The translations under genes were made by a program, and so were the position numbers. A DNA stretch of 20,207 nt, from positions 1 through 20,207 of IMG/VR virus record IMGVR_UViG_2718217714_000002; one strand, given 5' to 3'. The notes beneath the pieces are model-generated. The model saw only the letters and a list, made by a program, of their open reading frames with translations. It searched no databases and was not told where the DNA came from. The DNA is from a virus (Duplodnaviria > Heunggongvirae > Uroviricota > Caudoviricetes). Within the stretch, counting starts at the first letter, position 1. Each line of letters begins with the position of its first letter. This document shows positions 1,910 to 20,207 of the stretch, piece after piece.

Positions 1910-1927
1910 AGGTAAATAATAGATGCG

Positions 1928-1974
1928 ATTACTGCAAGGTAAACAACCTGCGGGTATTGACTTTTGTTTACCTG
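1928..1974. promoter_or_regulatory. Immunity-region operators and candidate rightward promoter
   Basis: Direct repeat CCTGCGGGTATT at 1937-1948 and 1961-1972. Inverted repeat GGTAAACA (1928-1935) / TGTTTACC (1955-1962). TTGACT (1947-1952), 16-nt spacer, TATTCT (1969-1974), then AAGGAG (1989-1994) before the ATG at 2010. Confidence 0.5.
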
Positions 1975-2009
1975 CGGGTATTCTTTGCTGTGTTTACTAA
2001 GGAGTAGCT

Positions 2010-2291: not shown

Positions 2292-2700
2292 ACACATCCG
2301 CATGGCGATGAATGCCTGGGCGCATCCGGACGGTGAAAAAGTTCCGGCAGCTGAAATAACCAGGGCTTATTTTGAACTGGGTATGACGTTCCCAGAACTG
2401 TATGACGACAGCCATCCGGAAGCCCTGGCTCGCAATACCCAGAAAATTTTCCGCTGGGTAGAGAAAGACACCCCTGATGCAGTTGAAAAAATTCAGGCGT
2501 TGTTACCAGCTATCGAAAAAGCAATGCCACCTCTGCTGGTGGCCCGAATGCGCAGCCATAGCTCAGCCTATTTTCGGGAACTAGTGGAGACGCGGGAACG
2601 ACTGGTGAGAGACGCTGATGATTTTGTCGCAGTGGCGATCGCTGGTTTCAACCAGATGAATCGTGGTGGCCCTGCAGGAAATATTGTGGCTGTGCATTGA
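2275..2700 (+). CDS. YdaT-like prophage protein (CII-like position)
   Basis: 141 aa, begins MKIKHEHI as I recall for Rac YdaT. Start overlaps the end of the Cro-like gene (translational coupling). Confidence 0.5.
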   Translation: MKIKHEHIRMAMNAWAHPDGEKVPAAEITRAYFELGMTFPELYDDSHPEALARNTQKIFRWVEKDTPDAVEKIQALLPAIEKAMPPLLVARMRSHSSAYFRELVETRERLVRDADDFVAVAIAGFNQMNRGGPAGNIVAVH

Positions 2701-2765
2701 CTCGCAATATTCATACCGGATCACTTCCGGCAATTTGTGAGTAAAAAGATTCGGTATCAAAAGAG

Positions 2766-3842: not shown

Positions 3843-3882
3843 GTGTTAATTTCTGGTCATGAGGTAATTTTCAGGAGGGCTT

Positions 3883-4305
3883 GTGGCAAAAGTTTTTACA
3901 CAAGAAGAGCGGGAAAAAATTAAAGGGCAGGTTCTTGAACTCGTACGCCAGAGTGGGCGCGAGACGTTACGACAACTGGAAGCTAAAACTGGGGCAACAA
4001 GATATCTGATGAGCGTTCTGGCCAGAGAGCTGGTTGCCAGTGGCGATGTATACAATTCTGGCTACGGGTTATTCCCGTCTGAACAGGCTCGTAAAGACTG
4101 GCAAAATGCCCGCAAAAAATTATCGAGGGCAAAGCTGAAGAAACCGGTTGTGGTTGATCCGGACCTTATCTGGTCATTACCTGACGGAGAAATACGTCGC
4201 TACGACAGTCGCCTAAACATAATCTGTCGCGAGTGCCGGAAGAGCGAAGTTATGCAGCGCATATTGTCGTTTTATCAGGGGGATGTTCGGTATTTATTGA
4301 AGTGA
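3883..4305 (+). CDS. Hypothetical protein, possible winged-helix DNA-binding; replication-module accessory
   Basis: 140-aa ORF with GTG start 3 nt after AGGAGG. No family recognised. Confidence 0.4.
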   Translation: MAKVFTQEEREKIKGQVLELVRQSGRETLRQLEAKTGATRYLMSVLARELVASGDVYNSGYGLFPSEQARKDWQNARKKLSRAKLKKPVVVDPDLIWSLPDGEIRRYDSRLNIICRECRKSEVMQRILSFYQGDVRYLLK

Positions 4306-4639
4306 CGAGATTAAAGTGCATTAGTTCAGATGCAAATTGACATTTTGTGGCACAGGGTAGAGCTAGCGTGGTTGTCCGCTTTGTGCCAAGAGCAGACGCT
4401 GGTAATTCGTGCCTAATATACTTCACTTAACTTATATCCCAGCTTTGATACAGATCATACAAATTAAATGCCCCAGTAATTGGCAGGCTGAGTAACTTAA
4501 AACTCCTTAGAATATAGGATGATTTGTATCGGCACTCATTCCACCATGCATTCCGATTAATCCCGCATAGCCAGTTGAACTTTGCTACTCTGTGAGAGGT
4601 AGTACCTTCTATCCAGTGCGGATTTAATTAATGGAATAA

Positions 4640-6643
4640 ATGATTATGAGTGAAAATGATACAACCCCAAAGAAGTCTACAAGCCAGGTTAACAAAGCGG
4701 TATTCTTTACATCTGCTTTGCTAATTTTCCTTCTTGTCGCCTTTGCCGCCGTATTCCCGGATGTCGCCGACAAAAATTTTAAACTACTTCAGCAACAAAT
4801 CTTCACGAATGCCAGCTGGTTCTACATACTTGCTGTGGCCCTGATTTTACTGAGCGTCACGTTCCTTGGACTCTCACGTTACGGTGATATAAAGCTGGGC
4901 CCAGACCATGCGCAGCCTGATTTCAGCTACCACTCCTGGTTCGCGATGCTTTTTTCGGCAGGGATGGGGATCGGCCTGATGTTCTTTGGCGTTGCCGAAC
5001 CTGTGATGCATTATCTTTCGCCACCTGTCGGCACTCCAGAGACCGTTGCGGCAGCGAAGGAAGCCATGCGCCTGACGTTCTTCCACTGGGGTCTGCACGC
5101 ATGGGCAATTTATGCCATCGTGGCGCTGATTCTGGCCTTTTTCAGTTACCGTCACGGTCTGCCTTTAACGCTGCGTTCTGCGCTCTATCCCATTATCGGC
5201 GATCGCATTTACGGGCCTATAGGCCACGCGGTTGATATCTTCGCCGTGATAGGCACTGTCTTTGGCGTTGCAACATCGCTGGGTTACGGTGTATTGCAGG
5301 TGAATGCCGGTTTGAACCATCTTTTCGGCGTGCCCATCAATGAAACGGTACAGGTCATTTTGATCGTGGTCATCACGGGGTTAGCGACGATTTCGGTGGT
5401 GTCCGGCCTGGACAAGGGAATACGCATCCTGTCTGAGCTTAATCTGGGCCTGGCGGTGTTGCTCCTGGCGCTGGTCTTGTGCCTGGGTCCCACTGTGCTT
5501 CTGCTGAAGTCATTTGTGGAAAATACGGGTGGTTATCTGTCGGAACTGGTGAGTAAAACGTTCAACCTTTACGCGTATGAACCCAAGTCGAGCAACTGGC
5601 TGGGGGGCTGGACATTATTATACTGGGGATGGTGGCTTTCATGGTCGCCGTTTGTAGGTATGTTCATTGCACGCGTTTCCCGCGGCAGGACAATTCGTGA
5701 GTTCGTGACTGGCGTGTTGTTTGTTCCCGCCGGCTTTACGCTCATGTGGATGACGGTGTTTGGAAACAGCGCCATCTATCTCATCATGAACCAGGGCGCC
5801 ACTGACCTCGCCAATACCGTTCAGCAGGATGTTGCGCTTGCCCTGTTTAATTTCCTGGAGCATTTCCCGTTCTCTTCCGTGCTGTCATTCATTGCAATGG
5901 CGATGGTCATCGTCTTCTTTGTAACGTCTGCTGATTCGGGGGCAATGGTTGTGGATACTCTGGCATCAGGTGGGGTGGCAAACACGCCCGTCTGGCAGCG
6001 AATTTTCTGGGCATTGCTCATGGGCGTTGTTGCTATTGCCCTGCTGATCGCAGGGGGGCTGAGTGCGTTGCAAACCGTAACGATAGCGAGTGCATTGCCC
6101 TTCTCAGTTATCTTATTAATATCCATATACGGACTGTTAAAAGCCCTGCGTCGGGATTTGACCAAGCGTGAAAGCCTTAGCATGGCGACTATTGCTCCTA
6201 CGGCTGCACGTAACCCAATTCCCTGGCAGAGAAGGTTACGCAATATCGCGTATTTGCCGAAGCGCTCTCTTGTGAAACGTTTTATGGACGACATTATCCA
6301 ACCCGCCATGACGCTGGTTCAGGAGGAACTTAACAAGCAGGGAACGATAAGCCACATCAGTGACGCCGCCGAGGATCGTATTCGCCTTGAAGTCGATTTG
6401 GGCAACGAGCTGAATTATATATATGAAGTGAGGCTTCGCGGGTATAACTCACCGACCTTCGCGCTCGCTGCGCTGGATAATGATGAGCAGCAGAGTGAAC
6501 AACATCGATATTATCGCGCTGAAGTCTATCTCAAAGAGGGCGGCCAAAATTATGATGTAATGGGCTGGAATCAGGAACAGCTGATTAATGACATACTGGA
6601 CCAGTACGAAAAACACCTGCACTTCCTGCATCTGGTTCGTTAA
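4640..6643 (+). CDS. BCCT-family transporter, BetT-like (choline/betaine/carnitine type) with C-terminal cytoplasmic domain
   Basis: 667 aa. Multiple TM segments and BCCT signature region WTLLYWGWWLSWSPFVGMFIARVSRGRTIREF. Overall collinear with E. coli BetT as recalled, including the C-terminal ...ILDQYEKHLHFLHL tail. Confidence 0.85.
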   Translation: MIMSENDTTPKKSTSQVNKAVFFTSALLIFLLVAFAAVFPDVADKNFKLLQQQIFTNASWFYILAVALILLSVTFLGLSRYGDIKLGPDHAQPDFSYHSWFAMLFSAGMGIGLMFFGVAEPVMHYLSPPVGTPETVAAAKEAMRLTFFHWGLHAWAIYAIVALILAFFSYRHGLPLTLRSALYPIIGDRIYGPIGHAVDIFAVIGTVFGVATSLGYGVLQVNAGLNHLFGVPINETVQVILIVVITGLATISVVSGLDKGIRILSELNLGLAVLLLALVLCLGPTVLLLKSFVENTGGYLSELVSKTFNLYAYEPKSSNWLGGWTLLYWGWWLSWSPFVGMFIARVSRGRTIREFVTGVLFVPAGFTLMWMTVFGNSAIYLIMNQGATDLANTVQQDVALALFNFLEHFPFSSVLSFIAMAMVIVFFVTSADSGAMVVDTLASGGVANTPVWQRIFWALLMGVVAIALLIAGGLSALQTVTIASALPFSVILLISIYGLLKALRRDLTKRESLSMATIAPTAARNPIPWQRRLRNIAYLPKRSLVKRFMDDIIQPAMTLVQEELNKQGTISHISDAAEDRIRLEVDLGNELNYIYEVRLRGYNSPTFALAALDNDEQQSEQHRYYRAEVYLKEGGQNYDVMGWNQEQLINDILDQYEKHLHFLHLVR

Positions 6644-6650
6644 CAGCAAC

Positions 6651-6679
6651 ATGCCGCCACAGAGGCGGCATTTATTTAT
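6651..6679 (+). terminator. Rho-independent terminator after the BCCT gene
   Basis: Stem ATGCCGCC (6651-6658) / GGCGGCAT (6664-6671) followed by TTTATTTAT. Confidence 0.6.
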
Positions 6680-6691
6680 CCCGGCTGCAAT

Positions 6692-7984
6692 ATGAGGGAA
6701 TGCAGAATGATTTCACGCTGGAAATGGATGCTGAAGCAGACATTTAAAAAACTATGGTTCAGGGCAACGTTATTCGCAATTGTCGCAATAATAACGGCCC
6801 TTTTATCAATTCTTTTTAAATCAATGATACCTGAGTCGGTTTCCGTGAAGGTTGGTGCGGAAGCAGTCGATAACATTCTGAACATACTGGCATCGAGTAT
6901 GCTGGCAGTGACCACATTTTCGCTGAGCATCATGGTCACAGCCTACGGTTCAGCCACTACTAATGTGACTCCCAGAGCTACTCGTTTAGTCGTTGAAGAC
7001 GTCACCACACAAAATGTACTGGCCACCTTCATCGGTTCTTTTCTCTTCAGTCTGGTAGGGATTATTGCCCTCAATATGGGAGCTTATGGAGAAAGGGGGA
7101 GAGTCATTTTATTCATTGTAACACTGGTTGTCATTGCCTTAATCCTCATCACATTGCTTCGCTGGATACAGCATTTGACCTCTCTGGGGAGGGTTGGTGA
7201 GACAACGGCAAAAGTAGAACAGGCGGCCATCGAAACATTTATTGCGAGAGCAAGAAATCCCTGTCTCGGCGGATATCCATGGCTTGAGAACAATGAACAG
7301 CCGAAAGGAACGGTTGCAGTTTATCCGAAAAAGATTGGCTATGTTGAATATGTTGATATGGTGAAACTCAGCAAGCTGCTGACCAATGATCCCCGTCATG
7401 TATACCTCGTGGCGCAGCCGGGCAGTTTCATACATCCGTCCACGCCAGTTTTGTACCTGAGTCAGGGCCAGGAGTCATCAATCAGCACCGATTTACTTGA
7501 GACGATTATTGTCTCGGATGTACGTTCATTTGCTCAGGACCCCCGATTTTGTCTTAGCGTCATGGCCGAAATAGCCTGCCGAGCCCTTTCCCCCGCAGTG
7601 AACGATCCTGGAACCGCCATTGATGTCATTGGCAGAGGTGTACGTATACTTTCCGCTTACGCGCAGAATAAATCTGATGAAATAGAAGTGAAATATCCTT
7701 CTGTACATGTTGCACCACTTCAGAATAACGATCTACTTGAAGACTTTTTCTCACCTGTTGCGCGCGATGGTGCCAGTATGAGGGAAATTCAGATAAGGGT
7801 CCTTAAAGGACTGTCGATGCTGAGTAAGGGTTGGCCTGGAATTTTTGCTGAAGCCGCACAAACCCTAGCATTTGAAACATTAGAGCATGCTACTCGTGCT
7901 GACCATATAGATTCTGACAGATATCTAATAAAATCAATTTATTATAATTTATTTAGTGGCGAAGATTCTAATAAAAAACCATAG
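6692..7984 (+). CDS. Membrane protein with N-terminal TM helices and large C-terminal soluble domain (possibly DUF2254-like)
   Basis: 430-aa ORF. Hydrophobic helices in the first about 160 aa, then a soluble domain. Likely true start at ATG 6707 (GAGGGA SD 7 nt upstream). Family assignment is from memory of the architecture and is unverified. Confidence 0.55.
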   Translation: MRECRMISRWKWMLKQTFKKLWFRATLFAIVAIITALLSILFKSMIPESVSVKVGAEAVDNILNILASSMLAVTTFSLSIMVTAYGSATTNVTPRATRLVVEDVTTQNVLATFIGSFLFSLVGIIALNMGAYGERGRVILFIVTLVVIALILITLLRWIQHLTSLGRVGETTAKVEQAAIETFIARARNPCLGGYPWLENNEQPKGTVAVYPKKIGYVEYVDMVKLSKLLTNDPRHVYLVAQPGSFIHPSTPVLYLSQGQESSISTDLLETIIVSDVRSFAQDPRFCLSVMAEIACRALSPAVNDPGTAIDVIGRGVRILSAYAQNKSDEIEVKYPSVHVAPLQNNDLLEDFFSPVARDGASMREIQIRVLKGLSMLSKGWPGIFAEAAQTLAFETLEHATRADHIDSDRYLIKSIYYNLFSGEDSNKKP

Positions 7985-8266
7985 TTGCGGAGCAAGCGAT
8001 ACGGTTGTTGGCAAGTCAAGGGCAAAGCATTCGCGTGAGAGTGGGCGTCTGCTTTGTGCCAGGAGCGGAAGTTGCCAAGAGAACTCTTGCAAAGGTATGA
8101 TAACGTAGGTGCTAAATAATCATGAACCATAATAAATTAAAGGTTTTTAAGTTGACTCTATGGCGTTTCTTTTGCATGATGATTTTTTATTTATTATATA
8201 AAGCTTAAATATACATAATATTTAGCTTCATTTTTTTAGGTATTTTAAAGATTTAGAGGAATGTGA

Positions 8267-9610
8267 ATGGCTACTTATGCTTCTTATTTACCAGAATCAC
8301 AAATTATCACTTTGTGCAAGGATTTCCCAGCGTTTACTGATCCTGAAAAATTAGATGGATTCATTAATCCAGAACAGTTTGGCGTGTTTTTTCATGAGTG
8401 GATTCATTTTCTTCACAATATTTCCACAATTAATGGGTTTTCTATTTTTTGCACGCAAAACATCCTGTGGTCTAATTTTCGCTGGGCAATGGACAATCAG
8501 GATGTATGTCTTGGTTCAAATGACATGGATCCAGCACATATCGAATCAAACAAAAATTTTCTCAGTTACATTCGTTCCAATAGGAGTCCGCATAAATGTA
8601 ACTTACCTTATTATGTAAAAGTAAACGACTTGTATTTTGAGGATGCAATAATCCATGACATGGAGGTTGCTGACGGTAGTGTTATATGTACATCATTAAT
8701 AAAGTGTAGAATTTCTCATTCTGAAAACAAATACGATCTAGATTTAGGCGTGCTTGAAATACTTGAATCCGCAGCTTTTATGCTTGAATGTAAGTGTATT
8801 AATGCGATGAATGGCTTCCCTCAAGAGGCACCCTTTTATCCGTATCATACTATCAAGGGCTTAGCAGCGAAAATTGCTCCGTCATTAAATGATGAAGATA
8901 TTATTTGTTGTATGTTAGCTTCTTTGCAATCTAATAACCCTCCCCAAGTATTATTCAATCTACTACATAAATGTGAATTATTACATTCTGATTGTAGGTA
9001 TGAACATCTAGTGGCGGAGGTGAAAAAACAATTAAGCGAACAAGATCAAATAATAAGCGAGTCACTTAATCAAATAATTCAAATGATTCCTGTTGATGAA
9101 CCGATGGGAAACTTTATCAAGCTTACTCTTAACAGAATAAGTAACAATTTGAACTATAGAAAGCAAAAACCGTTTTTTGAGTTAGATATAATAAAAAAAA
9201 TAGCAGAAAAAACTGAGTTTATGAATGAAGTAATACAGAAATTCGGTGGTTGCACTATCATCCAGGTAAGACATGGAGATGATAATGAACCACAGCGTGA
9301 TATTATGTATGACTTTTGCTTACCTGAAAATAATGATTCAATTTTATTTGGTTCGAAAATGCTACGCGCTTGTTTTCACTTTATATTTATTCACTTTAAA
9401 CTTTCTGGTGAAATCATGAAGACAGAAGAATTAAATATTTCGCCGCGTAATAAATGCCCATTTTATACTGTTTGCTGTGCATCAATTCGAGCTAATAATA
9501 GTAATATCTGCGCTGAATCCCCTTGGAAATCAATGTCTATTGATGACAACAAAGGTTGTTATTATGCAGCAGCGATTAAAGCTACTAACCCACCAGTTTT
9601 GCCGGATTAA
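8267..9610 (+). CDS. Hypothetical 447-aa protein with N-terminal HExxH motif (possible zinc metallopeptidase-like), in an AT-rich island
   Basis: Long ORF with AGAGGA SD. FFHEWIHFLHN at residues about 41-51. Cys-rich C-terminal part. Markedly AT-rich by eye relative to neighbours. No family recognised. Confidence 0.6.
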   Translation: MATYASYLPESQIITLCKDFPAFTDPEKLDGFINPEQFGVFFHEWIHFLHNISTINGFSIFCTQNILWSNFRWAMDNQDVCLGSNDMDPAHIESNKNFLSYIRSNRSPHKCNLPYYVKVNDLYFEDAIIHDMEVADGSVICTSLIKCRISHSENKYDLDLGVLEILESAAFMLECKCINAMNGFPQEAPFYPYHTIKGLAAKIAPSLNDEDIICCMLASLQSNNPPQVLFNLLHKCELLHSDCRYEHLVAEVKKQLSEQDQIISESLNQIIQMIPVDEPMGNFIKLTLNRISNNLNYRKQKPFFELDIIKKIAEKTEFMNEVIQKFGGCTIIQVRHGDDNEPQRDIMYDFCLPENNDSILFGSKMLRACFHFIFIHFKLSGEIMKTEELNISPRNKCPFYTVCCASIRANNSNICAESPWKSMSIDDNKGCYYAAAIKATNPPVLPD

Positions 9611-10156
9611 GAATAGTGTTCTATCTGATAAATATAAAATATTTAAGGTCAGGTCTGCTTATCGCTCAAAGCGGACTAGAAGGTTAGCTTGCGTCGGACT
9701 TGGCGTATTTAAAGAAGTACTGGTGGTGACTGGTTGTTGTGTTCCATTTCTACAGAACAAAATCACAGAAACTATACCCAATAGTTGTATCTCATCAATG
9801 ATGAGACAGCCTCATATTTATCAGGACTGGTGTACGTCCAATACAGGAGGTTGTCGTGCTGGTTCTCAAATGTGCGCTGGCTATTGCAGCTGTAATGGCA
9901 ATTTATTGTCTTGCTGTTGTTCTTATGGATCGCCTTTCTGATTGATTTTATATTGGCGAGGTAACGGGAGTTAAGTAGAATGGCTGCGGGTGCTTGAGGC
10001 TATCTGTCTCAGGCATGAACACCAAAGGCAGATAGAGAAAAGCCCCAGTTAACATTACGCGTCCTGCAAGACGCTTAACATTAATCTGAGGCTCAATCTA
10101 TGAACGGCAAATCTAGGTTAGCCTCTTACGTGCCGAAAGGCAAGGAGAAGCAGGCT

Positions 10157-10312
10157 ATGAAGCAGCAAAAGGCGATGTTAATCGCCCTGATCGTCATCTG
10201 TTTAACCGTCATAGTGACGGCACTGGTAACGAGGAAAGACCTCTGCGAGGTACGAATCCGAACCGGCCAGACGGAGGTCGCTGTCTTCACAGCTTACGAA
10301 CCTGAGGAGTAA
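10157..10312 (+). CDS. hokD: Hok/Gef-family type I toxin (HokD/RelF-like, 51 aa)
   Basis: MKQQKAMLIALIVICLTVIVTALVTRKDLCEVRIRTGQTEVAVFTAYEPEE matches Hok-family sequence as recalled. AAGGAG SD upstream. Overlapping upstream mok-like frame from 10100. 5' tac-like (about 9985-10000) and 3' fbi-like (about 10350-10376) complementary elements. Confidence 0.85.
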   Translation: MKQQKAMLIALIVICLTVIVTALVTRKDLCEVRIRTGQTEVAVFTAYEPEE

Positions 10313-10379
10313 GAGACCAGGCGGGGGAGAATCCCTCGCCACCTCTGATGTGTCAGGCATCCTCAACGCACCCGCACTT

Positions 10380-10406
10380 AACCCGCTTCGGCGGGTTTTG
10401 TTTTTT
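10380..10406 (+). terminator. Rho-independent terminator of the hok mRNA
   Basis: AACCCGC-TTCG-GCGGGTT stem-loop followed by TTGTTTTTT. Confidence 0.65.
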
Positions 10407-10478
10407 CCTAGCATTCTGGTTTACAATTCGCACGCCAGCCTGAACAACTGGCACCTGCTGCGCCAGCAGAGACAACCG

Positions 10479-10757
10479 ATGGCGCACGATACCAAATTAC
10501 ACAATTCTGATGATTCTGCCGTCTTTGCCAGCAGGCACGGGCGGCGTTCCCGCACTTTCAAATCTGACTGGTTCCAGCATCCCCCATGCACTGAAGAACA
10601 GGCCGAGTGGCTAATTCAGTGCTACCGCAGACACGGATACGAGATTAAGAAAGCCCTCAGCCTCGATTATCGTCACTGGATAATCTCCGTCAGGCTTCCT
10701 TACTCCGAACGCCCACCGCGTCCGTCCCGCACATTCCAGCAACGCATCTGGAGGTAA
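10479..10757 (+). CDS. Hypothetical prophage protein (92 aa)
   Basis: The track ORF from 10350 is trimmed to the Met after the hok terminator. Stop overlaps the SD/GTG start of the next gene. No family recognised. Confidence 0.35.
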   Translation: MAHDTKLHNSDDSAVFASRHGRRSRTFKSDWFQHPPCTEEQAEWLIQCYRRHGYEIKKALSLDYRHWIISVRLPYSERPPRPSRTFQQRIWR

Positions 10758-10758
10758 C

Positions 10759-11805
10759 GTGCGGGTATTACTTCGACCTGTTCTGGTACCGAAACTCGGG
10801 CTGGTGATCGTTAAGCCGGGCCGGGAATCCATGCCGGTATTCCACAATACCCGGGTACTGGTGGAGCCGGAACCGAAAAGCATGCGTAATCTGCCGTCCG
10901 GGGTCGTTCCTGCCGTTCGCCAGCCGCTAGTGGAAGACAAAACATTGCTGCCGTTTTTCAGTAACGCACGGGTGATTCGTGCTGCTGGTGGTGCTGGTGC
11001 ATTGTCTGACTGGCTGTTGCGCCATATTAAATCCTGCCAGTGGCCTCATGGTGATTACCATCACAGCGAAACCGTCATACATCGTTACGGTGCTGGCGCG
11101 ATGGTGTTGTGCTGGCACTGTGACAACCAGTTGCGTGACCAGTCCTCCGAATCACTTGAGCAACTTGCTCACCAAAACCTGTCAGCATGGATGATTGACG
11201 TCATGCGCCATGCAATGAATGGCACACAGGAGCGGGAATTATCGCTGGCTGAATTATCCTGGTGGGCTGTCTGCAATCAGGTGGCGGACGCACTACCGGA
11301 GGTAGTATTACGTCGTTCTCTGGGGTTACGTGCGGAAAAAATTCGCTCGGTGTACCGCGAAAGCGACATCGTACCGGGAGAGCAGACCGCCACCAGCATA
11401 CTGAAGCAGCGCACAAAAAATCTTGCGCCGCTGCCTCACGCCCACCAGCAAAATCCACCACAGGAAAAGACGGTGGTCAGCATTGCTGTTGATCCGGAGT
11501 CTCCGGAATCTTTCATGAAGCGACCTAAACGTCGCCGTTGGGTAAATGAGAAATATACGCGCTGGGTAAAGACACAGCCGTGTGCGTGTTGTGGTAAGCC
11601 AGCCGACGATCCCCATCACCTGATTGGTCATGGTCAGGGCGGAATAGGGACAAAATCCCACGATATTTTCACGCTACCGCTGTGTCGGGAGCATCACAAC
11701 GAGCTTCATGCGGATCCGCTGGCGTTCGAAGAAAAGCATGGTTCCCAGATTGATTTAATTTTTCGTTTTCTTGATCGCGCCTTTGCAACCGGCGTGCTCG
11801 GGTAA
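10759..11805 (+). CDS. DUF968-containing prophage protein (YdfU-like), C-terminal HNH/zinc-binding-like motif
   Basis: 348 aa, GTG start after GGAGG. C-terminus CACCGKPADDPHHL...LCREHHNELH, a Cys/His cluster typical of DUF968 proteins found upstream of Q in Qin-type prophages. Confidence 0.7.
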   Translation: MRVLLRPVLVPKLGLVIVKPGRESMPVFHNTRVLVEPEPKSMRNLPSGVVPAVRQPLVEDKTLLPFFSNARVIRAAGGAGALSDWLLRHIKSCQWPHGDYHHSETVIHRYGAGAMVLCWHCDNQLRDQSSESLEQLAHQNLSAWMIDVMRHAMNGTQERELSLAELSWWAVCNQVADALPEVVLRRSLGLRAEKIRSVYRESDIVPGEQTATSILKQRTKNLAPLPHAHQQNPPQEKTVVSIAVDPESPESFMKRPKRRRWVNEKYTRWVKTQPCACCGKPADDPHHLIGHGQGGIGTKSHDIFTLPLCREHHNELHADPLAFEEKHGSQIDLIFRFLDRAFATGVLG

Positions 11806-11817
11806 AAGAGGTTACTG

Positions 11818-12189
11818 ATGCGTATAGAGTTTGTTTTGCCTTACCCGCCGACGGTGAACACCTACTGGCGTCGTCGTGGCAGCACATATTTTGTATCAAA
11901 AGCCGGTGAGCGTTATCGCCGGGATGTGGCACTTATTGTCCGCCAGCAGCGGCTGAAATTAAACCTGTCCGGAAGGCTGGCAATAAAAATTACTGCAGAG
12001 CCGCCGGATAAGCGCCGTCGGGACCTGGACAATATCCTGAAAGCACCGCTGGATGCACTGACGCATGCGGGGCTTCTCATAGACGACGAGCAGTTTGATG
12101 AAATCAATATTGTGCGCGGTAAGCTCGTTCCTGGTGGTCGGCTGGGCGTGAAGATTTGCGAAATTAGAGGTGATAGTAATGGGGCGTGA
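11818..12189 (+). CDS. rusA: Crossover junction endodeoxyribonuclease RusA (Holliday junction resolvase)
   Basis: 123 aa with the RusA-family core RRRDLDN and surrounding pattern. Located in the nin region before Q. Confidence 0.8.
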   Translation: MRIEFVLPYPPTVNTYWRRRGSTYFVSKAGERYRRDVALIVRQQRLKLNLSGRLAIKITAEPPDKRRRDLDNILKAPLDALTHAGLLIDDEQFDEINIVRGKLVPGGRLGVKICEIRGDSNGA

Positions 12190-12532
12190 TATGTATGAGG
12201 TTTTAGACCGCTGGGGGGCATGGGCTGCAGCAGAAAATAGTGGTGTCGATTGGCAACCGATAGCAGCGGGCTTCAAGGGGCTTTTACCTCATGGCAAAAA
12301 GTCACGGATTCAGTGTGATGATGACGAAGGCATTATGATAGACAGTTGTGTGGCTCGGTTGAGAAGGTATAAACCAGAGGAATATGAGCTCATCATAGCC
12401 CACTTTGTTATTGGTATCTCATTACGCACTATTGCCAAAAAGAGAAGGTGTTCAGATGGCACGATTAGAAAGGAATTACAAACTGCAATTGGTTTTGTAG
12501 AGGGTATTACGAGCGTTATTGCATGTAAATAA
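12179..12532 (+). CDS. Late-gene antitermination protein Q (short Q, quuD/quuQ-like)
   Basis: MGRDMYEVLDRWGAWAA...IAAGFKGL... aligns with the N-terminus of DLP12 QuuD as recalled (MRDIQMVLERWGAW...AAGFKGL). Start chosen at ATG 12179 (AGAGG SD 9 nt upstream); the track ORF starts at 12170. Confidence 0.7.
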   Translation: MGRDMYEVLDRWGAWAAAENSGVDWQPIAAGFKGLLPHGKKSRIQCDDDEGIMIDSCVARLRRYKPEEYELIIAHFVIGISLRTIAKKRRCSDGTIRKELQTAIGFVEGITSVIACK

Positions 12533-12537
12533 AAGCT

Positions 12538-12559
12538 AAAAGCCACCGTAGTGGCTTTT
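12538..12559. terminator. Bidirectional rho-independent terminator between Q (+) and the converging minus-strand cargo operon
   Basis: AAAAGCCAC-CGTA-GTGGCTTTT. T-rich 3' flank on both strands (AGCATTTT on plus, AGCTTTTATTT on minus). Confidence 0.6.
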
Positions 12560-12565
12560 AGCATT

Positions 12566-12715
12566 TTAGGATTGTGCAGGTAATGTTTTGTTCAATTTAG
12601 TAAAGAAGTTAGATTGGCTTGTTACAGTACGTCGACTCTTTCCAGAAGTACTCAACTGAAAGAAATCATTGATGCTTTTGGGTTGAGTTCTTTCATAGGC
12701 TTGCTTAAGTGACAT
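12566..12715 (-). CDS. Candidate small ORF (49 aa) immediately downstream of the proteasome-like gene
   Basis: My own translation of the reverse complement: MSLKQAYERTQPKSINDFFQLSTSGKSRRTVTSQSNFFTKLNKTLPAQS. Possible GGGGA SD about 5 nt upstream. Below the ORF-track size cut-off. Coding status unproven. Confidence 0.25.
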   Translation of the reverse strand: MSLKQAYERTQPKSINDFFQLSTSGKSRRTVTSQSNFFTKLNKTLPAQS

Positions 12716-12738
12716 GTGTTCCCCTTGTCTATTTGTTG

Positions 12739-14022
12739 CTATGACCGTGAAAAGTAGTGATGGTTCAGTTCTTTTGCAAAATAGTGCTTACGTTTAACCC
12801 AGATAAAACCATCAGCTTTAGAAATGATTGCAACATCTATGGGGCCTCCCACTGTTTCAGTATCATCGGAGACCTTGCGCTTGAAAGCGGTTAAATTTAC
12901 TAATGATTCAGCCATATAAGCTAAATCTTGCTTGGGTAAAAACTCGATCATATTTACGACTTTGTCAACATAGTTTTCTCGGACAAAGCTATCAATACGC
13001 CCCTTGCAATCGGAAACAGTTCTGCGCACTACATCAACTATAGCATCCTTGGCTCCTTCGATATCTGAAGTGGGCACCAAATCTGTGATTACTGAATCAA
13101 TACCATCAAGTAAATCGCCGATAGAACGTTGATACTCAGCATGAAGATTTTGGATAAGATGTGAACTAGCTCCTTGCATGAAAGCAGAAACTTCATCCTC
13201 TTGCGCAAAGGGAGTCACGCCGCAATTAGGAGTGATGCAGCACTTGTCAGCATCTGTGGTTTTCCTTATTTTATCATTAAAGAAGCCACAAACTTCATAT
13301 GATAATACTTTAGGGTAATAGTCTTTATCGCCATAACCTGCAATCACAATCCCAGAGACGGAACCAATATCACTTTGCTTGCATATCATAGCTGCCAATA
13401 CATCACTAACTGCTTTTGTCAACTGTGGAGTTATGGATATTGAATCAAAGTCACTAAACTTTTGAGCAATGATGCGTTGGGTAATTGATGAAGCATAGGT
13501 TTGGGCTGCTTGTTCATCATCCGGAGTAAAACCATCAAAGTAATTAATATCAGATAATTTTGTAAGGAGATCGTTGCAATAATTCGTGAGGTCTGTAACA
13601 AATTGATTCTTATCGAAGTTAACGAGATATGTTGGTTCGAGACCTTCAGAAAAAGCATCAACAAGCATGCTGAATACAATCTCGCTCAGGAAGTGATAAA
13701 GATGAGCCTCACGCATACCTGGTGTGATGATTGATTTAGCTGACTGTAGATAATTGAAGAAATCCTCAGCATATTCCTCCAAAGAGTCAAAACATTTAGA
13801 GCCTAAATCCTTTCTATAAGCCTTAATGATAAGCTCCCATGGAGCTGTGCAGAGATCACCAGTTCCATATACCATCAAACCTACAGGATGATGTTTAGTG
13901 AGAGCGAAAAGCTTTTCAGCGCCATTATAGATTTTATGTTTGCCGCCTCCAGAAATCGTTACAGCTGAATCTGCGGCTAAAGCTACTGCGGTCTTGTTAA
14001 ATACGGCTATTTCTGCTGTCAT
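12739..14022 (-). CDS. Enlarged proteasome beta-subunit/HslV-like (Ntn-hydrolase fold) protein, 427 aa
   Basis: N-terminus M-TAEIAVFNKTAVALAADSAVT...EKLFAL...GLMVYGTGD aligns by eye with HslV and archaeal 20S beta (Thr1, Asp17, Lys about 33-36). C-terminus VGGPIDVAIISKADGFIWV matches the beta-subunit SGGMIDVAVITRKDGYV motif. About 200 extra residues lie between. AT-rich, no canonical SD. Confidence 0.7.
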   Translation of the reverse strand: MTAEIAVFNKTAVALAADSAVTISGGGKHKIYNGAEKLFALTKHHPVGLMVYGTGDLCTAPWELIIKAYRKDLGSKCFDSLEEYAEDFFNYLQSAKSIITPGMREAHLYHFLSEIVFSMLVDAFSEGLEPTYLVNFDKNQFVTDLTNYCNDLLTKLSDINYFDGFTPDDEQAAQTYASSITQRIIAQKFSDFDSISITPQLTKAVSDVLAAMICKQSDIGSVSGIVIAGYGDKDYYPKVLSYEVCGFFNDKIRKTTDADKCCITPNCGVTPFAQEDEVSAFMQGASSHLIQNLHAEYQRSIGDLLDGIDSVITDLVPTSDIEGAKDAIVDVVRRTVSDCKGRIDSFVRENYVDKVVNMIEFLPKQDLAYMAESLVNLTAFKRKVSDDTETVGGPIDVAIISKADGFIWVKRKHYFAKELNHHYFSRS

Positions 14023-14132
14023 TTTTTACATAGGGTTTATATGTTGTGTAATGAGAAAAATACAAAAAAATTAACGCGTACGCAAAAATTCTTGTAATCT
14101 GTTAAGAGTGGTTACTTCGCCACACAGCTTAA

Positions 14133-14157
14133 ACCCGCCGTCGAGCGGGTTTTTTTG
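14133..14157 (+). terminator. Plus-strand intrinsic terminator-like hairpin in the divergent promoter region
   Basis: ACCCGC-CGTCGA-GCGGGT followed by TTTTTTTG. No plus-strand gene lies upstream of it. Confidence 0.45.
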
Positions 14158-14254
14158 TACCTGTAAACTTGGTGCAGTACGGTAAACACGCTGGTGGTAG
14201 TGAATACTGACTTTTTATCTTGCTGGCTTTTTAGACAAGAGTTATTGGTATGTC

Positions 14255-14473
14255 ATGTTAACCAGAAGGGAAAAAGACATGCTAAAACAGCAAGATATGA
14301 CAGAAACGGCGAAAGTTGTTTTTAATGAATTAAGCATCGAACCGGCAACAGTCGGGGAGATTGCACAAAACACATACCTTTCACGCGAACGCTGTCAGTT
14401 AATACTGACCCAGTTGGTTATGGCGGGGCTGGCAGATTACCAGTTCGGCTGTTACAGACGTCTTCAGCAATGA
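14255..14473 (+). CDS. Small hypothetical protein (72 aa), possible DNA-binding
   Basis: ORF upstream of and co-directional with the methyltransferase. Helix-rich segment ATVGEIAQNTYLSRERCQLILTQL. Start uncertain (alternative Mets at 14279 and 14297). Confidence 0.4.
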   Translation: MLTRREKDMLKQQDMTETAKVVFNELSIEPATVGEIAQNTYLSRERCQLILTQLVMAGLADYQFGCYRRLQQ

Positions 14474-14622
14474 AGGGCTTTTAATTTGTGAAAATGGGCG
14501 GCTGGTGGGTGTTGGTAGCACCTGCCAGCCATTCGCTCATGCTTACTGGTCACAAGCGAACCACGGCCCACTGCTTTAGCGCAAAAGCAGAGTGAGCCTA
14601 CCAGAGTTACGCTTACTGATCC

Positions 14623-15669
14623 ATGAAAAATACTGTAAAAATAAACAGTGTTGATTTAATCAACGCTGATTGCCTGCATTTTATTCAGTCCCTGCCTGAT
14701 GATTCCATTGACCTGATTGTTACCGATCCGCCTTACTTCAAGGTGAAACCCAACGGTTGGGACAATCAGTGGAAAGGGGACGAAGATTACCTTAAGTGGC
14801 TGGACCACTGTTTGGCCCAGTTCTGGCGGGTGTTGAAACCTGCCGGAAGCCTTTACCTGTTCTGTGGGCATCGCCTGGCATCTGATATCGAAATCATGAT
14901 GCGTGAACGCTTTAATGTGCTGAACCACATTATCTGGGCGAAGCCGTCCGGACGCTGGAACGGATGCAACAAGGAAAGCCTGCGGGCGTATTTCCCGGCA
15001 ACAGAGCGCATTCTGTTTGCTGAACATTATCAGGGGCCATACCAGCCCAAAAATGACGGCTATGCGGCAAAGGGGCGCGAGCTTAAACAGTGCGTCATGG
15101 CCCCGCTGATTTCTTACTTTCGTGATGCGCGAGAATCTCTGGGGATAACATCAAAACAGATAGCGGAAGCCACCGGAAAGAAAAACATGGCGTCACACTG
15201 GTTTGGTGCCAGTCAGTGGCAGTTGCCGAACGAGGCTGATTACAAAAAACTTCAGGCGCTGTTCGCGCGTGTTGCAGCAGAAAAACACCAGCGCGGGGAG
15301 CTGGAAAAGCCGCACCACCAGCTGGTCAGCACATACAGTGAACTGAACCGGCAATATGCCAGCCTGCAGGAGGAGTATAAATCCCTGCGGCGTTATTTTT
15401 CCGTATCAGCTGCTGTTCCGTATACGGATGTCTGGACGCACAAGCCTGTGCAGTATTATCCAGGCAAACATCCCTGTGAAAAACCGGCAGATATGTTGCG
15501 TCAGATAATTACTGCCAGCAGTCGCCCCGGTGATTTGGTCGCTGATTTTTTTATGGGGTCTGGCTCAACAATAAAAGCAGCACTTTCACTGGGACGTCGC
15601 GCAATTGGCGTGGAACTGGAAGAAGAGAGATTTAATCAGACTGTAACTGAAATAAAAAATAATCGTTAA
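14623..15669 (+). CDS. DNA methyltransferase, beta-class (N6-adenine or N4-cytosine), orphan
   Basis: DLIVTDPPY (motif IV) near the N-terminus and FFMGSGST (motif I, SAM-binding) near the C-terminus. No restriction endonuclease candidate nearby. Confidence 0.8.
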   Translation: MKNTVKINSVDLINADCLHFIQSLPDDSIDLIVTDPPYFKVKPNGWDNQWKGDEDYLKWLDHCLAQFWRVLKPAGSLYLFCGHRLASDIEIMMRERFNVLNHIIWAKPSGRWNGCNKESLRAYFPATERILFAEHYQGPYQPKNDGYAAKGRELKQCVMAPLISYFRDARESLGITSKQIAEATGKKNMASHWFGASQWQLPNEADYKKLQALFARVAAEKHQRGELEKPHHQLVSTYSELNRQYASLQEEYKSLRRYFSVSAAVPYTDVWTHKPVQYYPGKHPCEKPADMLRQIITASSRPGDLVADFFMGSGSTIKAALSLGRRAIGVELEEERFNQTVTEIKNNR

Positions 15670-15739
15670 ATATGCATTTAATAATTTCTTTATTTCATAA
15701 AAAATAAAAATATATACGTATATTTACAAATCTTGATAT

Positions 15740-15767
15740 GATTTTCCATTGAAAAGAGAGCTGGCAT
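15740..15767 (+). promoter_or_regulatory. Candidate sigma70 promoter for the tRNA pair
   Basis: TTGAAA (15740-15745), 16-nt spacer, TAATAT (15762-15767), about 70 nt upstream of the first tRNA. Pattern match only. Confidence 0.3.
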
Positions 15768-15837
15768 TATTAATATCGGTACCCGGTTCCGAAGGGGATG
15801 TAAGCGCGGTCATTTTTATTTCTCTTGAGGAACCTGT

Positions 15838-15913
<76 letters not shown>

Positions 15914-15916
15914 TAT

Positions 15917-15991
<75 letters not shown>

Positions 15992-16349
15992 GAGAAACAA
16001 GCCTTATTGTATCGTTGCACTGGCGTATTTTTTATTGCGTGGGAGCAGGTTGTTTTTAAAAGGCATTCTGTTTTCTGGCTGTGATTTGAGGTCGGTTATA
16101 GCCACAGTGCTGTTTTTTACACCACTGGAATGGTGCATTATCGGTGGAAATTGAGCATTTCCTGACAGGGGCCGATGATGCACTATCCCGGTGTTGTAAA
16201 TAACACTACAGAGGTGTTCCTCAGTGCGAGGGTGGTTTATGTAACTGTTTAGCGGGAAACCACAGTATTCATGGAGAGATGGATACTTCGGGGGGCACCC
16301 GACACCTCTGTTTTTCTACTACAAAAATGATTCATCTCTGGCATTTTTC

Positions 16350-16376
16350 AACCGCCGTTCCGGGCGGTTTTTTTTA
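16350..16376 (+). terminator. Intrinsic terminator in the tRNA-to-lysis intergenic region
   Basis: AACCGCC-GTTCCG-GGCGGTT followed by a T9 run. Confidence 0.5.
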
Positions 16377-16697
16377 TTCTGAACTCAGAAAAGAATACAC
16401 GGGCATTGATATTACCCGTGTGGCAAGGCCATGAAAGCCAATAATGAACTGAGCGCAAAAAAAGCGCGGCTGTCGGATTAACGCCGCGGGACAAAGTCCG
16501 TGAAGAAGAATAAGCATCAGTCTCCTCCAGGAGACGATTTGATATTACTAAGCTTTAAAAATGGTTTAAACCCCCGGATTAACCTTAATTTCAGATAAGC
16601 TTTATTTCATTTTCTCCGAGCCACGTCAGGCGCATATCACATCAGATAACACCACATAAAAGGTATCTGCGGGTGCCTTTCACGGGGTGTTTTTTTA

Positions 16698-16720
16698 CGG
16701 GCCGCTGGTGGCCCTTTTTT
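16698..16720 (+). terminator. Intrinsic terminator immediately upstream of the holin gene (tR'-like position)
   Basis: GGGCC-GCTGGT-GGCCC followed by TTTTTT, then AGGAG SD and ATG at 16739. A second T-run hairpin-like element lies just upstream (about 16680-16696). Confidence 0.5.
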
Positions 16721-16738
16721 ATTTACAGGAGAAAAAGT

Positions 16739-17130
16739 ATGTCTGAACCCTTATCCGGTTCCGGCACGGCTGCAGCGCTCGGCGGGGCGACGGTGTACGG
16801 GCTGTTTACCGGAACGGATTTCGGGATTGTGTTTGGTGCCTTTGCCGGGGCGTTATTTGTGGCAACGATGCCGCAGGCGCTTTCAGCCTGGCGTGTGCGG
16901 CACATTTTCTGGTGTCGTTCATTGTTGGTGTGCTGGGGGCAGAAGTTCTGGCATCCTGGCTGGTAAAGCATACAGAGTTTGACGGTGCACCTGTCGACGC
17001 ATTGTGTGCAGTACTGGTGTCAGTGGTGTCGGTGAAGATTCTCTCGTTCATCCACCAGCAGGATATTGCATCACTGGTGTCCGGTCTGTTCTCCCGTCTG
17101 CGGGGCGGAGGAGGCGGCAATGTTAAGTAA
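16739..17130 (+). pseudogene. Holin-like gene split by an apparent frameshift at a T4 homopolymer (16905-16908)
   Basis: Frame A (16739..16966) encodes a Gly-rich TM N-terminus and then W/C/R-rich nonsense. Frame B (16912..17130) encodes a TM-rich continuation SFIVGVLGAEVLASWLV.... Adding one T to the T4 run joins them as ...RVRHIFLVSFIVGVLG... into one holin of about 130 aa. Confidence 0.5.
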
Positions 17131-17398
17131 CCTTCCCGGATTGCTGAATGTGGCGTTATGCACGGTTATCGTGCTGACGCTCTTTTTTTATCGTCGTCGT
17201 GATTCCAGACATAAACCGTTGATGTCATGGCTGGCCTGGCTGCTGATGCTGCTTTATGCCTTTGCACCACTCAGTTATCTGTGCGGTCGCCCGTTAGCGG
17301 CGAACTGGCTGGCGGTGGGGCTTAATCTGCTGTTCTGCGTGTTGGTTATTCGCGCACGCGGGAACGTTTCAAAAATCTTTGTATTACGAAGACGCTGA
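17120..17398 (+). CDS. Small membrane protein of the lysis cassette (holin/antiholin-like)
   Basis: 92 aa, MLSNLPGLLNVALCTVIVLTLFFYRRRD... with at least two hydrophobic helices. GGAGG SD. Start overlaps the upstream stop and its stop abuts the endolysin ATG. Confidence 0.5.
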   Translation: MLSNLPGLLNVALCTVIVLTLFFYRRRDSRHKPLMSWLAWLLMLLYAFAPLSYLCGRPLAANWLAVGLNLLFCVLVIRARGNVSKIFVLRRR

Positions 17399-17399
17399 T

Positions 17400-17528
17400 A
17401 TGAAGTCGAAAGATGAAATTTTTGACGAAGTTCTGGGAAAAGAGGGCGGTTACGTCAATCACCCGGATGATAAAGGCGGACCGACAAAATGGGGTATTAC
17501 GGAAAAAGTCGCCCGCGCTCACGGATAA
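17400..17528 (+). pseudogene. Endolysin 5' fragment (glycoside hydrolase family 108-type N-terminus), truncated after 42 codons
   Basis: MKSKDEIFDEVLGKEGGYVNHPDDKGGPTKWGITEKVARAHG then TAA. The GGYVNHPDDKGGPTKWGIT signature is the conserved start of GH108-type phage lysozymes. The downstream sequence switches to tail-fibre coding DNA. Confidence 0.65.
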
Positions 17529-18129
17529 CGGGAAATACACCGCACAGAATGCAACGACAGCACAGAAAGGGATAGTACAACTCAGCAGTGCGACAAACAG
17601 TACTTCCGAGTCACTGGCGGCAACGCCAAAAGCAGTTAAGGCCGCGTATGACCTGGCTAACGGGAAATACACCGCACAGAATGCAACGACAGCACAGAAA
17701 GGGATAGTACAACTCAGTAGTGCGACAAACAGCACTTCCGAGTCACTGGCGGCAACCCCAAAAGCGGTCAAAGTGGTAATGGATGAGGCTCAGAGCAAAT
17801 TATCAAAGGATGAATTTTTAAGAAGTATCAGTTCGCCGAAACCGGATATCGGCAGTGTGGTTATGGCAGCTTTTTTGGGAGTAGCGGAAGGTGGAGTTTT
17901 AATGCGCCTGAGTCGTGGACAACCATGCCCGGGAAAAGCACTTGCGCCGGTGGAAATAGTAGTGGGAGGCGTGACAGGAGCAGGCACAATGAAAGGGGAG
18001 GCAACGTTTGTCATTGGCAGAACGAATACATCGGCATTTCCCGGAGTGTATCAGTCTCTGGGGGGAGATGGTCTTTATACCACCAACGGAAAGGAAGCGT
18101 ATATAGGATTATTTGTGCGGGTCGGGTGA
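17521..18129 (+). pseudogene. 3' fragment of side tail-fibre gene (tail-fibre repeat region plus C-terminal domain)
   Basis: Contains two copies of the tail-fibre repeat GKYTAQNATTAQKGIVQLSSATNSTSESLAATPKAVK, as in Stf proteins. The first about 36 codons of the 17413 track ORF are out-of-frame overlap with the endolysin fragment. Confidence 0.65.
17527..17769 (+). repeat. Tandem direct repeat, 132-bp unit, about 1.8 copies (coding tail-fibre repeat)
   Basis: AACGGGAAATACACCGCACAGAATGCAACGACAGCACAGAAAGGGATAGTACAACTCAG... at 17527 and again at 17659. Also produces the mirrored minus-strand ORF 17346..17771. Confidence 0.8.
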
Positions 18130-18135
18130 CAGAGT

Positions 18136-18702
18136 ATGCAGATAAAAAATATAAGAAATGCCATGTTTCTGGAGGATGGTGCTGTATATTGTGAAGTGCT
18201 TTTGGAGGGGCAGGAGGTACATCTACCTTATACCGCTGTTGAGAATGATGTTGCGGAAATGGGTAAACAGGTCTGGCAGGAACTGCAAAGCGGGAAGTGG
18301 GGCGGAATAGCCCGGTTTACCGTTACGCCTGAACTTATTGCCGCAGAAAAAGAGGCTAAAGTGCGTGAGATCGAAGTATGGCGTCAGGAACAGGAGTCCA
18401 TGTCGTTCATGCTGGAATGGAAAGGTCACAAATGGAATGCTGGTCCGGTTTCGCTGTCCCGCCTCTTACCAGTGGTAATGGCGGCGAAATCAGGAGCTGG
18501 CAGAGAAACAATTGTTTGGGGAGATGGAGAGAATACGCCAATCGTCCTGACGATGCAGGAACTGGAAGAACTTGCGGCAGTAATGGCACGGGCACAGGCC
18601 GATCGCAATGACGAGATTTATCGTCGTCAGCGGGAGATGAAGGAAGAGCTGAATAATCTTGATGATTTACGCTCAATCCGAGCGTTTGACGTTACGCAAT
18701 AA
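18136..18702 (+). CDS. Putative tail-fibre assembly / chaperone-like protein
   Basis: 188-aa ORF immediately downstream of the tail-fibre fragment, the usual Tfa position. Sequence not confidently matched to a specific Tfa family. Confidence 0.4.
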   Translation: MQIKNIRNAMFLEDGAVYCEVLLEGQEVHLPYTAVENDVAEMGKQVWQELQSGKWGGIARFTVTPELIAAEKEAKVREIEVWRQEQESMSFMLEWKGHKWNAGPVSLSRLLPVVMAAKSGAGRETIVWGDGENTPIVLTMQELEELAAVMARAQADRNDEIYRRQREMKEELNNLDDLRSIRAFDVTQ

Positions 18703-18923
18703 AAAAAACACTGATATGCAAGCCCCTTGTAAAAATATTGAACAGGGATGCTTTGAGTTGAATTGGATTTACATGGGGGCACCTTGGGGCATATATGGGA
18801 CATAAAAAGGCCTCAGACAAACAGCAAAATCGAGATCAGGAGTTTTTAGAAAAAATACAACTATCTGAAAAAACTTAGAAAACGCCCAAAAATCCATAGG
18901 ATGGTAAAAAATATCTATGAATT

Positions 18924-20207
18924 ATGGATTTCCAGTTATATTCGCTCGGCGCAGCGTTGGTGTTTCATGAAATATTTTTTCCTGAATCATCAACGGCAAT
19001 GGCGTTAATTTTGGCAATGGGAACCTACGGTGCAGGTTATGTGGCGCGTATTGTCGGAGCATTTATTTTCGGCAAAATGGGCGACAGAATAGGGCGTAAA
19101 AAAGTGCTCTTTATTACCATCACCATGATGGGGATCTGTACCACCTTAATTGGTGTGTTACCGACCTATGCACAGATTGGTGTTTTTGCCCCCATCTTGC
19201 TGGTGACGCTGCGTATTATTCAGGGGTTGGGTGCAGGTGCGGAAATTTCCGGTGCCGGTACGATGCTGGCGGAATATGCACCAAAAGGTAAGCGCGGAAT
19301 TATCTCCTCATTTGTAGCTATGGGAACTAACTGCGGAACCTTGAGCGCAACGGCAATCTGGGCCTTTATGTTCTTCATTCTCAGTAAAGAGGAACTGCTG
19401 GCGTGGGGATGGCGTATACCGTTCCTGGCGAGCGTTGTCGTGATGGTCTTTGCTATCTGGTTACGTATGAATCTGAAAGAAAGCCCGGTCTTTGAGAAGG
19501 TTAATGACAGCAACCAACCCACAGCAAAACCTGCACCTGCTGGTAGCATGTTCCAGAGCAAATCCTTCTGGCTGGCAACAGGGCTGCGTTTTGGTCAGGC
19601 GGGTAACTCCGGGTTAATTCAGACTTTCCTTGCAGGCTATTTAGTGCAGACGTTATTGTTTAACAAAGCAATTCCAACAGATGCATTGATGATTAGTTCG
19701 ATTCTCGGCTTTATGACCATTCCGTTCCTTGGTTGGTTATCCGATAAAATTGGTCGCCGGATCCCGTATATTATTATGAATACCTCCGCGATTGTGCTGG
19801 CATGGCCAATGCTTTCTATCATTGTAGATAAAAGCTATGCCCCGAGCACCATTATGGTTGCACTGATTGTGATTCATAACTGTGCGGTGCTGGGATTATT
19901 TGCTCTGGAAAACATTACCATGGCAGAAATGTTCGGCTGTAAAAACCGCTTTACCCGGATGGCCATTTCTAAAGAAATTGGTGGTCTTATCGCTTCCGGT
20001 TTTGGTCCTATCCTGGCGGGTATTTTCTGCACCATGACGGAATCCTGGTATCCGATCGCCATTATGATCATGGCATATTCAGTGATTGGTTTAATCTCTG
20101 CGCTGAAAATGCCAGAAGTGAAAGACCGTGATTTAAGTGCGCTGGAAGACGCTGCGGAAGATCAACCGCGTGTTGTAAGAGCTGCGCAACCTTCCAGAAG
20201 TCTGTAA
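18924..20207 (+). pseudogene. ydfJ: MFS (metabolite:H+ symporter family) transporter gene lacking its 5' end; ydfJ-like prophage-interrupted gene
   Basis: 427-aa ORF begins MDFQLYSLGAALVFHEIFFP..., i.e. inside the conserved (E)W(Y)DF region that normally follows TM1. In-frame TGA three codons upstream. Matches what I recall of E. coli ydfJ, which is interrupted by Qin. Confidence 0.7.

Follow-up and report, generated by a model that had tools for sequence, protein, structure and literature searches.

The locus raises the question why a phage endolysin ORF stops after 42 codons and is followed, in another reading frame, by the end of a side tail-fibre (Stf) gene. The original prediction took this as the mark of a deletion of the whole structural module of a prophage. 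We report that a genuine deletion of that module after integration is the best explanation (probability approximately 0.9), the main residual doubt being that one assembly is the sole source of the junction. The window, i.e., the whole stretch of DNA that was analysed (20.2 kb), extends from the start codon of the chromosomal rspA gene to the stop codon of ydfJ with a lambdoid prophage in between, and the element is a lambda-like prophage in E. coli ydfJ, the site held by Qin in E. coli K-12. The ydfJ copy in the window is truncated at its 5' end (Table 1); unoccupied ydfJ (L022) has 455 codons, the match to this empty site begins at window position 18918, and ydfJ in the matching genomes is annotated as 'missing N-terminus'. 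Qin sits at the ydfJ 5' end and cuts off 28 codons (PMC6379469).

Table 1. Features at the two deletion junctions and in the adjoining lysis, tail-fibre and chromosomal genes (window coordinates; a slash within a sequence marks the point of joining).
Feature	Position	Strand	Description
rspA, first 224 nt	1-224	+	Joined at 223/224 (shared TA) to prophage sequence immediately after dicB; 6,893 bp gone
Holin 1 (Phage_holin_8 type, 130 codons in relatives)	16739-17130	+	Frameshifted; relatives annotated 'putative holin' / PF16931
Holin 2 (Phage_holin_3_7)	17120-17398	+	Intact; Pfam PF05449, E = 2.9e-21; stop TGA 17396-17398
Endolysin remnant	17400-17528	+	ATG 17400, 42 sense codons (17400-17525), TAA 17526-17528; 42/181 codons of a GH108 muramidase
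Chimeric ORF, 238 codons	17413-18129	+	38 out-of-frame endolysin codons and Stf remnant (ORF list)
132-bp tandem repeat encoding Stf repeats	17526-17765	+	Tandem Repeats Finder: period 132, 1.8 copies, 97% matches, score 459
Deletion junction	17526-17527		Dinucleotide TA common to both parents; endolysin ...CACGGATA/TCAGGG, Stf ...CCTGGCTA/ACGGGA
Side tail-fibre (Stf) remnant	17527-18129	+	Last 200 codons, residues 497-696 of the three-repeat allele; two 44-residue repeats and C-terminal tip
DUF4376 gene	18136-18702	+	Intact; slot of tail-fibre assembly/partner gene; Pfam DUF4376 E = 7.1e-14
ydfJ, 3' part	18924-20207	+	427/455 codons; chromosomal host gene of the prophage; annotated in 120899 and ETEC-2265

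The immunity region, Q, hokD, a methyltransferase gene, two tRNAs and cargo genes are kept, in line with the original prediction that regulatory and cargo genes had been retained. Terminase, head and tail genes are missing altogether, and none of the approximately 25 late-block genes of the ETEC-2265 prophage (see below) has a counterpart in the window. The cargo at 4640-7984, between the replication genes and hokD, comprises two genes, one for a transporter of the BCCT family (667 aa) and one for a membrane protein with DUF2254. In ETEC-2265 an IS3 and an IS100 separate the DUF977 gene from the BCCT gene, directly upstream of the pair; the window has neither. Another cassette (8047-9677, with an ORF of 447 aa at 8267-9610) is 99.7% identical in P2-like prophages (L006, L009-L012), where it lies between the genes for tail-fibre assembly and for the sheath; sister lambdoid prophages have Mrr_cat, OLD-like AAA_15/TOPRIM, DUF3800, ParA or an 834-aa protein in this slot, upstream of hokD. 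The 447-aa protein gave no match in Pfam, NCBIfam, PADLOC or PDB and falls in PHROG 15354 (unknown function), and its gene is a candidate anti-phage gene moving between unrelated phages. An ORF on the minus strand (12739-14022, 427 aa), located between the Q antiterminator and the methyltransferase gene, is kept in all sister prophages; its product had no Pfam, NCBIfam, PADLOC or PDB match either and belongs to PHROG 5990 (unknown function).

All the coordinates given in the original prediction were right. By profile search the 42-aa peptide was confirmed as a GH108 lysozyme N-terminus, matching positions 1-34 of 85 of Pfam Glyco_hydro_108 (PF05838; E = 5.4e-13, 49.7 bits, cut-off 21.2) and positions 3-36 of 200 of NCBIfam NF040573 ('holin-associated N-acetylmuramidase'). 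The DNA of the remnant has zero differences to codons 1-42 of the ETEC-2265 GH108 gene (181 codons; WP_000836754.1), and throughout window 15144-17527 there are zero mismatches to this genome except an indel in a holin gene. The N-terminal homology to GH108 is thus present, the ORF stops at codon 43 before the catalytic domain (85 positions) is complete, and the PG_binding_3 domain (PF09374) of the 181-aa relatives is replaced here by tail-fibre sequence. Judged by its sequence, the endolysin ORF is a gene remnant and not a functional member of the GH108 family. An exact-match look-up of the 42-aa peptide gave three short metagenome/SRA contigs (L016-L018), which were rejected as carriers of the junction and have only 80-91% DNA identity to the window. 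These are diverged endolysin copies on contigs that end exactly at the window equivalent of 17526/17527; this common end point is most likely an artefact of the exact-match look-up, and it may also represent a mosaic boundary.

Upstream of the endolysin remnant, holin 2 has the same length as the annotated 92-codon gene of ETEC-2265. Relative to four relatives (in an alignment including L003, L008 and L013), holin 1 is one G short at 16897, and its ORF is split in two (16673-16966 and 16912-17130; ORF list). The missing G may be a true frameshift mutation or an error of sequencing, and the frameshifted product was not on record in an exact-sequence look-up.

Downstream of the endolysin remnant the sequence continues from 17527 in the +1 frame relative to the endolysin, and the claim that it runs on there as the repeats and the C-terminal domain of Stf held (two Phage_fiber_2 matches, E = 1.5e-40, Pfam). 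After the repeats follow about 105 residues, and residues 104-199 match the C-terminal end of phrog_2636 (PHROG tail-fibre family). The remnant is colinear with the last 200 residues of the Stf proteins of ETEC-2265 (652 aa) and CH4793 (696 aa), both encoded downstream of J and lom, and the gene order in relatives is J-lom-stf-DUF4376. The repeats and the tip colinear with full-length Stf place the remnant in this family; the N-terminal tail-attachment domain and the Ala/Ser-rich shaft (the first ~496 residues) are missing, and endolysin sequence stands upstream of 17527 instead. The relatives are annotated as 'prophage tail fiber N-terminal domain-containing protein', and when the tail-fibre frame was followed upstream in homologues, 496 further Stf codons were found that are absent from the window. 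The original prediction thus withstood both of the checks that had been named as able to refute it, on the lysozyme N-terminus and on the tail-fibre frame. On its 3' side the remnant is followed by the DUF4376 gene, a dinI remnant and the 3' part of ydfJ. The DUF4376 gene, which matches PHROG 1141 'tail fiber protein' (E = 3.3e-75), is also located after stf in ETEC-2265, 120899 and CH4793.

The join also generates a chimeric ORF (Table 1), the 238-aa product of which was not on record in an exact-sequence look-up in the protein collection. A promoter scan of 16400-19000 revealed no promoter-like site to drive it, and we treat this ORF as a probable reading-frame accident.

The number of Stf repeats varies among the relatives, with two in ETEC-2265 (652 residues) and three in CH4793 (696 residues). 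Since the window retains NGKYTAQNATTAQ plus repeat twice over, the cut was possible only from a three-repeat allele, at the boundary of repeats 1 and 2 (residue 497 of 696). Hence, the deleted ancestor most likely carried the three-repeat, 696-codon Stf gene and not the two-repeat allele of ETEC-2265; this ancestry is deduced from the more distant CH4793 (97.6%), and the closest relatives of the right flank have two repeats.

Checking other isolates for the undeleted form, as had been proposed, identified it at the same ydfJ site in eight complete ETEC genomes with 99.5-99.9% identity (whole-window search), i.e., ETEC-2265 (NZ_CP023346.1), 504237, 602354, TW10722, 120899, 103605, 204446 and LR883006. 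The left half (window 9654-17527) is 99.886% identical to ETEC-2265, with eight substitutions and one indel, and the right half (17566-20207) 99.659% identical. A draft genome, L008, matches window 223-17527 in one block with 99.85% identity and continues with the intact endolysin gene, bor and beyond. Alignment to the intact relatives mapped the deletion end points, which in ETEC-2265 are 25,954 bp apart including a 2.7-kb ISCro1. From the lysis end, this interval comprises the remaining 139 codons of the endolysin gene, which include the peptidoglycan-binding domain, then two small ORFs with no assigned function, iss (bor) and ylcI; the genes for the small terminase subunit and for the large one, which is split by the 2.7-kb ISCro1; the head genes (head-tail joining protein, portal, S49 protease, decoration protein, major capsid protein and FI); the tail genes as far as the tape measure gene, followed by L, K, I, J and lom; and codons 1-496 of stf, its 5' part. 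Subtracting the IS (2,699 bp) and adding the extra repeat (132 bp) gives approximately 23.4 kb of lost phage DNA. The original prediction that everything between the endolysin and the end of the tail fibre is missing therefore stands for the rest of the endolysin, the terminase, head and tail genes and the 5' part of stf. It does not stand for Rz, which is not annotated in the intact relative, where the two small ORFs and bor/iss come after the endolysin.

The ETEC-2265-type prophage has in common with the window the integration site, early region, Q, methyltransferase, tRNAs, the holin-holin-GH108 order, Stf C-terminus, DUF4376 gene and dinI remnant. It differs in that it keeps the late block, int, xis, exo, dicB and an intact rspAB, in its two Stf repeats, in its immunity region and in the set of cargo genes that precedes hokD. 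Look-ups with the DUF4376 and methyltransferase genes recovered sister loci, and most loci with the same methyltransferase retain an intact late region (eight of the ten listed). The sequenced free phages are partial relatives of one side each (SerU-LTIIb, phiP27 and Rac-SA53 for the lysis cassette; mEp460 and P2 for the fibre repeats), and none covers both end points.

These data bear on whether the structural genes were ever present. The element could be a satellite or a mosaic island that gained a fragment of a tail-fibre gene by recombination, for which the absence of structural genes is the one argument. However, a complete prophage at this attachment site matches the flanks with 99.7-99.9% identity, both end points lie inside genes, and the window carries no integrase, primase or capsid-redirecting genes of its own. 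A satellite origin is contradicted by the undeleted allele, and we consider it extremely improbable.

The junction was compared base by base with L001 and L002. The parental sequences read ...GCTCACGGATA/TCAGGGCG (endolysin) and ...GACCTGGCTA/ACGGGAAA (Stf), and the window reads ...GCTCACGGATA/ACGGGAAA. Homology to the left parent stops at 17527 and homology to the right parent begins at 17526 (17523 if one mismatch is allowed), and the TAA that terminates the endolysin remnant was created by the join itself. The suggested inspection of 17520-17530 for microhomology showed that TA is shared and nothing longer is exact; the wider GGaTA and GGcTA agree at four of five bases. No IS or repeat was detected at the right junction and this, together with an overlap of just TA, is the signature of illegitimate recombination; IS-mediated deletion was rejected because there is no IS sequence at the junction. 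A 2-bp overlap is expected by chance in one junction in 16, and microhomology is therefore a description and not proof of a mechanism. Most probably, the prophage integrated in ydfJ and afterwards underwent a homology-independent deletion that fused the GH108 endolysin gene, at codon 42, to an Stf gene of three repeats and 696 codons, at codon 497. The likely cause would be replication slippage or end-joining at microhomology, and not homologous, site-specific or IS-mediated recombination; support for a 'microhomology-mediated' route as such is weak.

A second deletion is present at the left end of the window, where the start of rspA is fused to prophage DNA (Table 1). Window 1-224 is the start of rspA, with 100% identity (ETEC-2265; L003 3001-3224), and window 223-1400 is 99.8% identical to L003 10118-11295. 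The deletion spans rspA nt 225 (codon 75) to just past dicB, and it took away the remainder of rspA, the whole of rspB, the 5' stub of ydfJ together with attL, and the genes int, xis, exo (exonuclease), DUF1482 and dicB. With attL, int and xis removed the element cannot excise. The left junction reads GCTTA/ACACTG with TA alone shared and a new in-frame TAA, and the exact 37-40-mer across it was absent from the GTDB representative genomes. A look-up of the 74-aa rspA' product returned genomes with a TAC-to-TAG nonsense change at rspA codon 75 and was rejected as a source of the left junction. This change is present in many E. coli genomes (L019-L024, locus position 10223-10225), at the same codon where the left deletion begins, such that nonsense change and deletion are two routes to one 74-aa product.

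Both junctions in the window have the form TA/AC with TA as the sole shared bases, which might speak for a stepwise or IS-assisted origin, i.e., that the right junction is the last of several nested deletions or arose by recombination between two copies of a TA-duplicating IS followed by excision. In the ETEC sister prophages, ISCro1 is indeed present in the terminase gene and IS3/IS100 elsewhere, and alleles in sister genomes look nested. The preferred target of IS630 is CTAG. The bases beside the junctions do not form CTAG, however, no IS sequence or footprint is left at either junction beyond TA, and the repeated TA/AC pattern may be a coincidence. Taken together we regard a stepwise or IS-assisted route as unlikely, noting that one-step deletion and several successive deletions give the same end product.

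Is the join a product of the assembly? A 2.4-kb query across the right junction was spanned by none of the complete E. coli genomes (n=5,426). The left-side matches (holin, holin, GH108) all ended at 17527 and the right-side matches (tail fibre, DUF4376, DinI remnant) began at 17523 or 17566. The exact 37-40-mer was also absent from the GTDB representative genomes and the JGI metagenomes. The junction accordingly rests on one assembly, and this deletion allele appears to be private. Its uniqueness is what would be seen if a contig ending in the endolysin gene had been joined to a repeated tail-fibre contig and the isolate really carried an intact prophage. Moreover, short-read contigs identical to the window begin inside the Stf repeat (17688 or 17719), so the region does break assemblies, and the single-base indel in holin 1 could be a sequencing error. 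Set against this, 2 bp in common at the join provide no overlap for an assembler, and order and orientation fit a simple deletion at the proper locus. The second clean deletion in the window and comparable deletions in other genomes also favour a real event as the simpler explanation, and an assembly artefact is therefore in our judgement improbable.

Comparable deletions were found in several sister genomes. In L013-L015, L029 and L035, holin 1 (window equivalent 17079) is joined to the DUF4376 gene (18203), and in L007 holin 2 (17167) is joined to ydfI. F9792 and other O169:H41 ETEC carry a related ydfJ prophage with a different lysis cassette (essD-rrrD-rzpD), and in F9792 the region just after iss is joined to a truncated tail protein gene followed by tfaQ. 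Like the window, the L013 type, L007 and F9792 have lost the lysis-to-tail block and retain the early region, and short imperfect microhomology is seen at their junctions (TGGtG/TGGaG in L013). Between the L013 type and the window there are 2 substitutions in the 9.3-kb prophage and 22 in the 1.3-kb ydfJ, which suggests separate host backgrounds and independent deletions, i.e., that the same phage entered different chromosomes and was deleted independently in each; the ydfJ differences may also stem from recombination in ydfJ. In the contig L027 (1-3624), a stretch 100% identical to window 17688-18932 is followed by int-xis-exo of another prophage copy instead of ydfJ, which suggests that some strain has prophages in tandem at ydfJ.

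The cryptic prophages of K-12 (Qin, DLP12, Rac and e14) have no head or tail genes and carry tail-fibre and assembly remnants beside lysis or terminase remnants, e.g. nohD beside tfaD' in DLP12 and stfQ'/tfaQ in Qin. Qin shares the ydfJ site with the window element, but all four differ from it with respect to immunity, lysis cassette (K-12 lysozyme types compared with GH108 here), cargo and end points. In comparison with these the window element arose by a far more recent deletion, in a phage of which intact copies are still in circulation.

Of the muramidase, terminase, head, tail and tail-fibre genes, the window retains none in complete form. In lambda, cos adjoins the gene for the small terminase subunit, and by analogy we infer that cos is also lost; the DNA would then not be packageable even by a helper using the same cos. 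From the gene content, derepression is predicted to give neither lysis nor virions, and with int, xis, exo and dicB deleted and holin 1 frameshifted the element would be a fixed passenger. Between the element and its sisters, whether intact or carrying other deletions, there are 2-25 substitutions in 9-17 kb. The deletion is thus recent, too little time has passed for the other genes to decay, and their retention is no evidence of selection.

At least four alleles remove a block that starts in or just after the lysis cassette, and the lineage of the window has lost three host-killing functions (endolysin, holin 1 and dicB) as against 2-3 substitutions in 9 kb. It is conceivable, though we regard it as doubtful, that the deletion is one of a series of independent, selected events by which this prophage family is disarmed. 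If so, positive selection would act against the lysis and killing genes, and the surviving Stf tip with its partner gene would constitute raw material for recombination with incoming lambdoid phages.

In conclusion, the deletion scar is real, and as an instance of prophage decay it is ordinary. The principle is already well established from the K-12 cryptic prophages and the literature on 'grounded prophages' and domestication, which covers loss of the morphogenetic block (PMC6379469). The specific allele was not found in the genomes and metagenomes searched and represents a new instance of this known type of event. For annotation, the element is a defective prophage, the ORFs at 17400-17528 and 17413-18129 are gene remnants and not a small protein and a tail-fibre gene, respectively, and the strain is not expected to release this phage. 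Finally, near-identical intact and several deleted alleles at one site provide a natural series for the rate and place of prophage disarming.
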